Shown here piece by piece: positions 4,767 through 5,204 of a stretch of 29,517 nt of DNA. Under the pieces are notes generated by a model. The model was not told the DNA's origin and did not search any database. It saw only the letters and a list, made by a program, of their open reading frames with translations. The translations under genes were made by a program, and so were the position numbers. This DNA is from a virus (lineage: Duplodnaviria; Heunggongvirae; Uroviricota; Caudoviricetes): positions 1 through 29,517 of IMG/VR virus record IMGVR_UViG_2531839446_000026. One strand, 5' to 3'. Positions within the stretch are counted from its first letter, which is position 1, and each line of letters starts with the position of its first letter.

Positions 4767-5204
4767 CTAATTGTTACTCCATTCGTTTTTTTTTATCATA
4801 GCTACAAGAAAATATCTGATGCCTGCTGAAATATAATCAGTAAAAACAATGTATCCTCCAGAAGACCAAGATTGAGATTTGGCTGAATGATACATTTGTT
4901 CCATTATTTTCTTTGTTAAGTTAATAAAGTCAATAGATTGAGAAGTTGCTGTTTGGTGATACTGATCAAATAATACCGGGATTGGACCTTGTTCTTTTGG
5001 GGCGCTTTTGAATACACCGTAATGTGCTGAGTTGCCTTTAGAGCCATAAAGAGCAACGACCCCTTCAACAAGGGAAATTACAACAGCGTTTGTTTTATCA
5101 AGTTCAGAATCACGCAGGTTGTATCGTTTCGAGTGGTCAAAATCTTTATCTTTCTCTTTTAATAGCTCGTGAACAATAACGTGGTTGATTTTTAGGTTTG
5201 GCAT
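4767..5204 (-). CDS. YejK/NdpA-like nucleoid-associated protein (NA37 family), N-terminal part; likely ATG start at 5204 (six-frame ORF extends to a TTG at 5228)
   Basis: N-terminus MPNLKINHVIVHEL and ..SGGYIVFTDYISAGIRYFLVAM.. parallel the recalled E. coli YejK motifs (LDINQIALHQL ; [21 protein letters not shown]). ORF stops 22 nt before the next ORF, just after a 9-A run. Confidence 0.6.
   Translation of the reverse strand: MPNLKINHVIVHELLKEKDKDFDHSKRYNLRDSELDKTNAVVISLVEGVVALYGSKGNSAHYGVFKSAPKEQGPIPVLFDQYHQTATSQSIDFINLTKKIMEQMYHSAKSQSWSSGGYIVFTDYISAGIRYFLVAMIKKNEWSNN

Follow-up and report, generated by a model that had tools for sequence, protein, structure and literature searches.

DS-1, a validated anti-phage system of DefensePredictor, holds a YejK domain in its protein 1 (D390 system) (PMC13092281). 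The DefensePredictor tables also give WP_016159279.1 as a predicted novel defence gene with a log-odds of about 13 (PMC13092281); this protein is the partner encoded by a diverged allele of the cassette described below. In type II PANGU, a nucleoid-associated protein (NAP) serves as the sensor, Pag2A, and is paired with the effector Pag2B, which has an acidic DNA-mimic N-terminal domain and a C-terminal transmembrane (TM) domain (bioRxiv 10.64898/2026.04.06.716658). One such system, PANGU-Ecu, is reported to act against T4 by abortive infection; it needs its two genes together, and no toxicity was seen with either gene by itself (bioRxiv 10.64898/2026.04.06.716658). In the model proposed for PANGU, infection makes the NAP depart from the degraded nucleoid, and the NAP then activates the effector (bioRxiv 10.64898/2026.04.06.716658). 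The same domain family includes E. coli YejK (NdpA; PF04245, PDB 9be2), the product of a standalone housekeeping gene.

We analysed a stretch of DNA of 29,517 nucleotides (the window), which corresponds to bases 1-29517 of ADUS01000054.1 from E. coli RN587/1; the 6,438-base locus at positions 1767-8204 of that contig is found letter for letter in the window at the same coordinates. The window contains an e14-like prophage at icd, whose right end is marked by pinE, mcrA, an icd fragment and iraM. Between the Q gene and the holin gene of this prophage lies a low-GC cassette of two genes on the minus strand, consisting of a NAP gene that is frameshifted in the window and a partner gene (Table 1). 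The NAP gene contains two A-runs, here called tract 1 and tract 2, which are the sole A/T runs of at least 8 in the 29.5-kb window.

Table 1. Coordinates of the cassette, its A-runs and its neighbours in the window
Feature	Position	Strand	Remarks
Antiterminator Q gene	2489..2836	+	e14-like lambdoid prophage; convergent with the cassette, overlaps the cassette end by 4 nt
Partner gene	2833..4053	-	19 nt downstream of the NAP gene; 406 aa; effector-like (Pag2B-like)
Whole NA37/YejK-like NAP gene	4073..5204	-	1131 nt / 376 aa with A8; here 1132 nt, frameshifted
Downstream fragment	4073..4744	-	223-aa ORF from an internal Met (MIHLE...); NA37 profile positions 140-321
Tract 2	4111..4119	-	second A9; codons CAA AAA AAA ATA, in frame here
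Upstream fragment	4767..5204	-	145 aa from ATG 5204, ends ...MIKKNEWSNN*; NA37 profile positions 1-125
Tract 1	4786..4794	-	A9 on the coding strand, T9 on the plus strand; the usual A8 plus one; shifts the frame
Lambda-family holin gene	5490..5816	+	opens the lysis cassette; divergent from the NAP gene

The NAP repaired at tract 1 matches Pfam PF04245 (NA37) over profile positions 1-320 of 325 in one stretch, with 158.5 bits (E 3.5e-46) against a gathering cut-off of 24.6 bits, and belongs to the NA37/YejK family over the full domain. It also matches PHROG 3767, 'nucleoid associated protein' (E 2.8e-80). Against the NCBIfam YejK model NF001557 it scores 132.7 bits (E 1.6e-38), below the equivalog cut-off of 341 bits; it is a diverged, paralogous member of the family and not YejK itself. 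It further differs from YejK in being prophage-borne, in its GC content of 31-35% (roughly 55% in the surrounding prophage) and in being operonic with a membrane partner. NCBIfam NF053868 DS1_1_antiphage ('nucleoid-associated anti-phage protein') matches the NAP over nearly its full length with 101.0 bits (E 6.7e-29; equivalog cut-off 330 bits), and NF053869 DS1_2_antiphage matches the partner over nearly its full length with 103.1 bits (E 1.6e-29; equivalog cut-off 315 bits). Judged from these profile scores, the pair is homologous to DS-1 but distant, below the level of equivalogs. HMMs of PADLOC-DB v2.0.0 (2023) matched neither protein at E values up to 1, which is consistent with a family described only in 2025-2026.

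The gene order is that of DS-1: two adjacent, co-oriented genes with the YejK/NA37 protein first (NAP 5204..4073, partner 4053..2833) and a second protein of about 340-400 aa. Unlike DS-1, it is carried as a prophage moron, with Q on one side and the lysis genes on the other. The partner matches PHROG 5023. Its N-terminal residues 1-280 are acidic (pI 5.15; 42 D+E vs 32 K+R), and its C-terminal part has hydrophobic segments at residues 283-330 and 383-406 (Kyte-Doolittle). By these crude sequence measures, the cassette has the layout of type II PANGU, a bicistronic unit in which the NAP gene precedes the gene of an effector whose N-terminal domain is acidic and whose C-terminal part holds the TM region; the likeness drawn here is one of architecture. 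We infer that the cassette is a diverged member of the DS-1 / type II PANGU kind with putative defence activity, in which the NAP would be the sensor-like (PagA / DS1_1-like) component.

A diverged allele of the cassette is present in about 30 complete E. coli genomes, such as PapRG-04-4, AR434 and GPEC1405 (locus coordinates about 1794-4180). It encodes a NAP of 382 aa (68% identical) and a partner of 408 aa (53% identical) at the same Q-proximal position, next to different lysis modules, which suggests that its two genes are exchanged together at this prophage hotspot. Positions 5245-5350 of the window, shortly before the holin gene, match the Q-to-S intergenic region of many lambdoid phages, with 87-98% identity to lambda, 434, SfII and Stx phages, and a terminator-like GC-rich hairpin followed by T's lies at 5316-5337 on the plus strand. 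This segment probably holds the late promoter/leader and a terminator; if so, the cassette would lie between Q and the late promoter, outside the late transcript. A promoter scan of the region scored no better than shuffled sequence.

Read on the minus strand, the sequence through tract 1 is GCT ATG ATA AAA AAA AAC GAA TGG AGT AAC AAT TAG, and the shifted frame ends 10 codons on, at the TAG at 4767-4769. With A8 (one A fewer) or A11 (two A more), the frame that opens with the ATG at 5204 stays unbroken for 376 aa, as far as the stop at 4073, whereas A7 and A10 each lead to a premature stop. The codons of the functional A8 allele at tract 1 are ATA AAA AAA ACG (I-K-K-T). If the TTG at 5228 is taken as the start, the upstream fragment is 153 aa long. 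The original prediction held that the A9 closes the upstream ORF, that A8 restores the frame into the downstream ORF and that NA37 similarity lies on either side. The first point was confirmed at its exact coordinates together with the TAG, the second in the form of the single 376-aa ORF, and the third by scores of 62 bits for the N half and 78 bits for the C half.

The alignments show one gene rather than two. The solved E. coli YejK chain 9be2_A aligns without a break over the tract-1 site (phmmer E 8e-13), and YejK has no Lys-Lys at the position aligned to tract 1. The diverged allele (68% amino acid identity) retains MIKKTNGVTISE over the site and reads through it as M-I-K-K-T-N-G-V-T-I-S-E in the A8 frame. 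Between the two fragments 14 residues are missing (TNGVTISEKLEPEE); the diverged allele conserves them, and they can be aligned to YejK. On these comparisons tract 1 interrupts a single gene, and the original view of one continuous gene cut at a slippage-prone run agrees with the single NA37 stretch, the YejK alignment and the diverged allele. Homologous cassettes encoding two separate proteins were looked for and none was found; the homologues are single ORFs.

A8 is the normal state of tract 1. It was found in six of six complete E. coli genomes with the cassette (99.9% identity), all of which have the NAP annotated as a single 'nucleoid-associated protein' CDS; FT130 alone among them has a change at tract 2. 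A variable-gap pattern scan around tract 1 returned A8 only, in two copies among species-representative genomes (S. flexneri SFBU0723) and on two contigs in IMG/VR, and gave zero matches in metagenomes. The exact intact 376-aa protein was present on 353 contigs, compared with 2-3 for the exact A9 N-terminal product. We also drew a sample of contigs via the partner gene, which makes it independent of the state of the NAP gene. Tract 1 was A8 in 18 of the 21 readable contigs and A7 in the other three, with A9 in none (0/21); one further copy was hidden by a scaffold gap. The comparison of tract length in homologous cassettes that the original prediction proposed thus finds A8 to be near-universal elsewhere.

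Pyrosequencing reads run length from light intensity, and because of this 454 miscalls long A/T runs, even in the consensus. Consensus errors of 454 Titanium mostly concern homopolymer length; they are A/T-biased, become more frequent as runs get longer and are at their worst where GC is low (PMC3277595). RN587/1 (ADUS00000000), an O157:H8 EPEC, was sequenced from 8-kb paired-end libraries with 454 Titanium only and assembled with Celera (PMC3715677). We infer from the assemblies that the ninth A is a homopolymer miscall in the draft, with a probability of about 60%; the functional NAP allele is A8, and the ninth A would most likely be absent from the bacterium. This reading is favoured because the draft is 454-only, because A8 is near-universal elsewhere and because the same contig has other private single-base insertions. 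Among the three origins first put forward for the interruption, a read error now stands as the most likely and an inactivating lesion as possible, and an ON/OFF switch finds little support. The gene family and the phenomenon of homopolymer frameshifting are both already described. The interruption resembles known homopolymer frameshifts (454 errors, slippage nulls, 9A rescue) in being a one-base change at an A8/A9 run of a low-GC gene in a 454-only assembly. It does not differ from them in kind; the added point is the recurrence of real A7 alleles at the same tract in other strains. The 145-aa and 223-aa 'nucleoid-associated protein' entries derived from the contig should be treated as one frameshifted gene and probably as an artefact of the 454 draft.

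The other private insertions lie in terS, a P27-family small terminase gene (about 7901-8366, plus strand). Single T insertions at 7995 and 8007, 12 bp apart, break this gene in the window, the second by creating a TAG. Both are private to the ADUS contig: neither four related prophages nor five independent assemblies that share the 8-bp C-terminal terS allele of the window (described below) have them. Compared with the four related prophages, the extra A of tract 1 and these two Ts are the only uncompensated single-base indels in conserved genes of the window, and in this comparison all three are private to the contig. The T insertions may be further 454 errors or may reflect true decay of the prophage. 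When the window's shortened TerS product was used as a lineage marker, the assemblies returned carried their own differing terS lesions, a selection bias of the look-up, and none of them includes the cassette.

Just two other assemblies have A9 at tract 1, JAPXAY010000002.1 and Logan SRR19660473, and both have further homopolymer changes in the NAP gene. JAPXAY010000002.1 is a 4.8-Mb contig; over 6.4 kb, four of its longest homopolymers have another length than in its nearest relatives (T7 vs T6, A9 vs A8, C5 vs C6 and A11 vs A9), a pattern typical of long-read homopolymer noise. SRR19660473 is FT130-like, including A8 at tract 2, and differs from FT130 only by the extra A of tract 1 and two SNPs. 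Both assemblies thus look unreliable at homopolymers.

Several observations speak against a miscall. Tract 2 has its majority length in the 454 assembly, and elsewhere in the window a comparison with relatives reveals no other uncompensated homopolymer indels. The A7 alleles described below show that the tract does mutate, which makes a true A9 allele plausible. SRR19660473 may be a short-read assembly, and A9 would then be real in at least one strain. The terS insertions lie outside long runs and could mean that a cryptic prophage is genuinely decaying.

The alternative that survives best is that RN587/1 carries a real null allele, created by +1 replication slippage; the NAP sensor would be truncated at residue 145 and the defence module of two genes would be disabled. 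We consider this possible but doubtful. Runs of about nine A/T slip in transcription and are likely hypermutable in replication (Baranov et al.; PMC1088944), and A9 is found on three different backgrounds. A broken terS in the same prophage fits a decaying prophage, and loss of the NAP is in line with the requirement of type II PANGU for both genes, neither of them toxic alone: if the cassette is PANGU-like, a true NAP frameshift would switch defence off without harm to the cell. On the other side, A9 is rare, absent from the sample drawn via the partner gene and present in three assemblies overall, each with quality concerns. A 454-only consensus at a run of 8-9 A in low-GC DNA is intrinsically unreliable. 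FT130, the closest relative, has A8, although its prophage is largely deleted and only about 8 kb of it is comparable. Should the ninth A not be a miscall, the interruption would be a null allele of the ordinary sort, at a type of mutational hotspot that is already known. A real A9 allele might still give a little full-length protein via transcriptional slippage; its rescue requires a +1 shift or mRNA with 8 or 11 A. In E. coli transcription, insertions prevail at A/T runs and deletions are seldom tied to such runs (PMC5574713); rescue of A9 would therefore be inefficient.

The mutability of the tract itself can be seen in other strains. Tract 1 is NEVERTHELESS a genuine indel hotspot, at which A7 recurs on at least four SNP backgrounds. 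The A7 allele yields a 142-aa product ending in ...MIKKRME, which was found on 17 contigs from E. albertii and E. coli; A7 occurs in many Logan read sets as well as in NCBI assemblies, which include a complete genome. Each of the A7 SNP backgrounds also exists with A8, and A7 is repeated within a background in independent runs. A7 is therefore inherited, real and recurrent. Tract 2 also varies in length. Other public copies have A8 (364-aa product, 20 contigs, including FT130), A10 (384-aa product, 16 contigs) or A11, and these variants change only the final ~12 residues of the NAP. The A-runs of the NAP gene are thus sites where natural null alleles repeatedly arise, and calls of presence or absence of this defence module need a check of tract length. 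The natural ON and OFF alleles also offer a cheap set for testing the function and the cost of the module.

Because A7 or A9 recurs at tract 1 on at least four haplotype backgrounds and A8 or A10 occurs at tract 2, both A-runs could be read as de facto slippage switches, by which lysogen populations would inactivate a costly abortive-infection module time after time and perhaps reactivate it. We regard this as quite unlikely; if true, it would give E. coli a rare example of phase-variable defence against phages.

An evolved contingency switch goes further, in that selection would keep the A-run so that lysogens toggle the costly abortive-infection module ON (A8) and OFF (A7/A9). Phase variation is known for defence systems of other bacteria, including restriction-modification and Pgl, and the NAP gene sits in a defence module. 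The coding tract has the property of switching the frame by its length, A8 being in frame and A7, A9 and A10 out of frame. Close strains are polymorphic in both directions at both tracts, in many strains and several backgrounds: copies that are 99.9% identical range from A7 to A9 at tract 1 and from A8 to A11 at tract 2, some of these lengths being perhaps assembly errors. Most of the disrupted NAP copies seen are broken at the tracts and not elsewhere. However, the run is no longer than the usage of Lys-Lys codons predicts. The NAP gene uses AAA for 33 of its 37 lysines and has six Lys-Lys pairs, and shuffling of synonymous codons gave one or more runs of A>=8 in 84% of trials and two or more in 39%, so A>=8 runs here are not beyond chance. 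Nor is the run conserved as a tract. The diverged allele has ATC AAA AAA ACT, only A7, at the tract-1 site and no run at tract 2, and YejK is without the Lys-Lys; what is conserved is therefore the protein and not the run. The large majority of sampled copies are ON, that is, in frame. E. coli is mismatch-repair proficient, and switching at contingency-locus rates is not known for A8 runs there. An evolved ON/OFF switch is thus very unlikely.

Weakest of all, and extremely improbable, is the reading in which the normal product is two separately functional proteins or arises by programmed recoding (ribosomal frameshifting or transcriptional slippage): either fragment alone passes the Pfam NA37 threshold and the A9 allele has the classic slippery heptamer A_AAA_AAA in phase, but intact single ORFs predominate in homologous cassettes, where the split is never the norm as the split ORF is in dnaX- or IS-like programmed frameshifting, and the conserved residues between the fragments, together with the single-ORF homologues, rule out two functional half-proteins. 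As a rescue, a -1 ribosomal frameshift on A_AAA_AAA was rejected: it goes into the A10 frame, with a stop after 4 codons.

Some further differences were observed among the copies compared. Another recurrent split of the NAP gives 179-aa and 184-aa products on 5-8 contigs, with a frameshift near ...AAKINF; this site lies away from the long A-runs, and therefore natural disruptions are not all at the tracts. In S. flexneri SFBU0723 (CP182557.1), two copies of the prophage region differ over 7.7 kb by 30 single-base gaps and 0 substitutions. Such a gap-only pattern is the mark of a repeat copy left unpolished in a long-read assembly, and frameshifts in this region are therefore not to be taken as biology. 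In the window, an 8-bp insertion at 8354-8361 (TCTGACAA, a near-tandem duplication) changes the TerS C-terminus to ...NPFLTI* from ...NPFLKIIES* and separates terS from terL. It is common to about a dozen independent assemblies and is a real allele. In FT130, an IS1A lies between the NAP gene and the holin gene and most of the prophage structural region is deleted, and 20A24 has an IS3-family element close behind its lysis genes; the prophages of both strains are decaying around a retained cassette.
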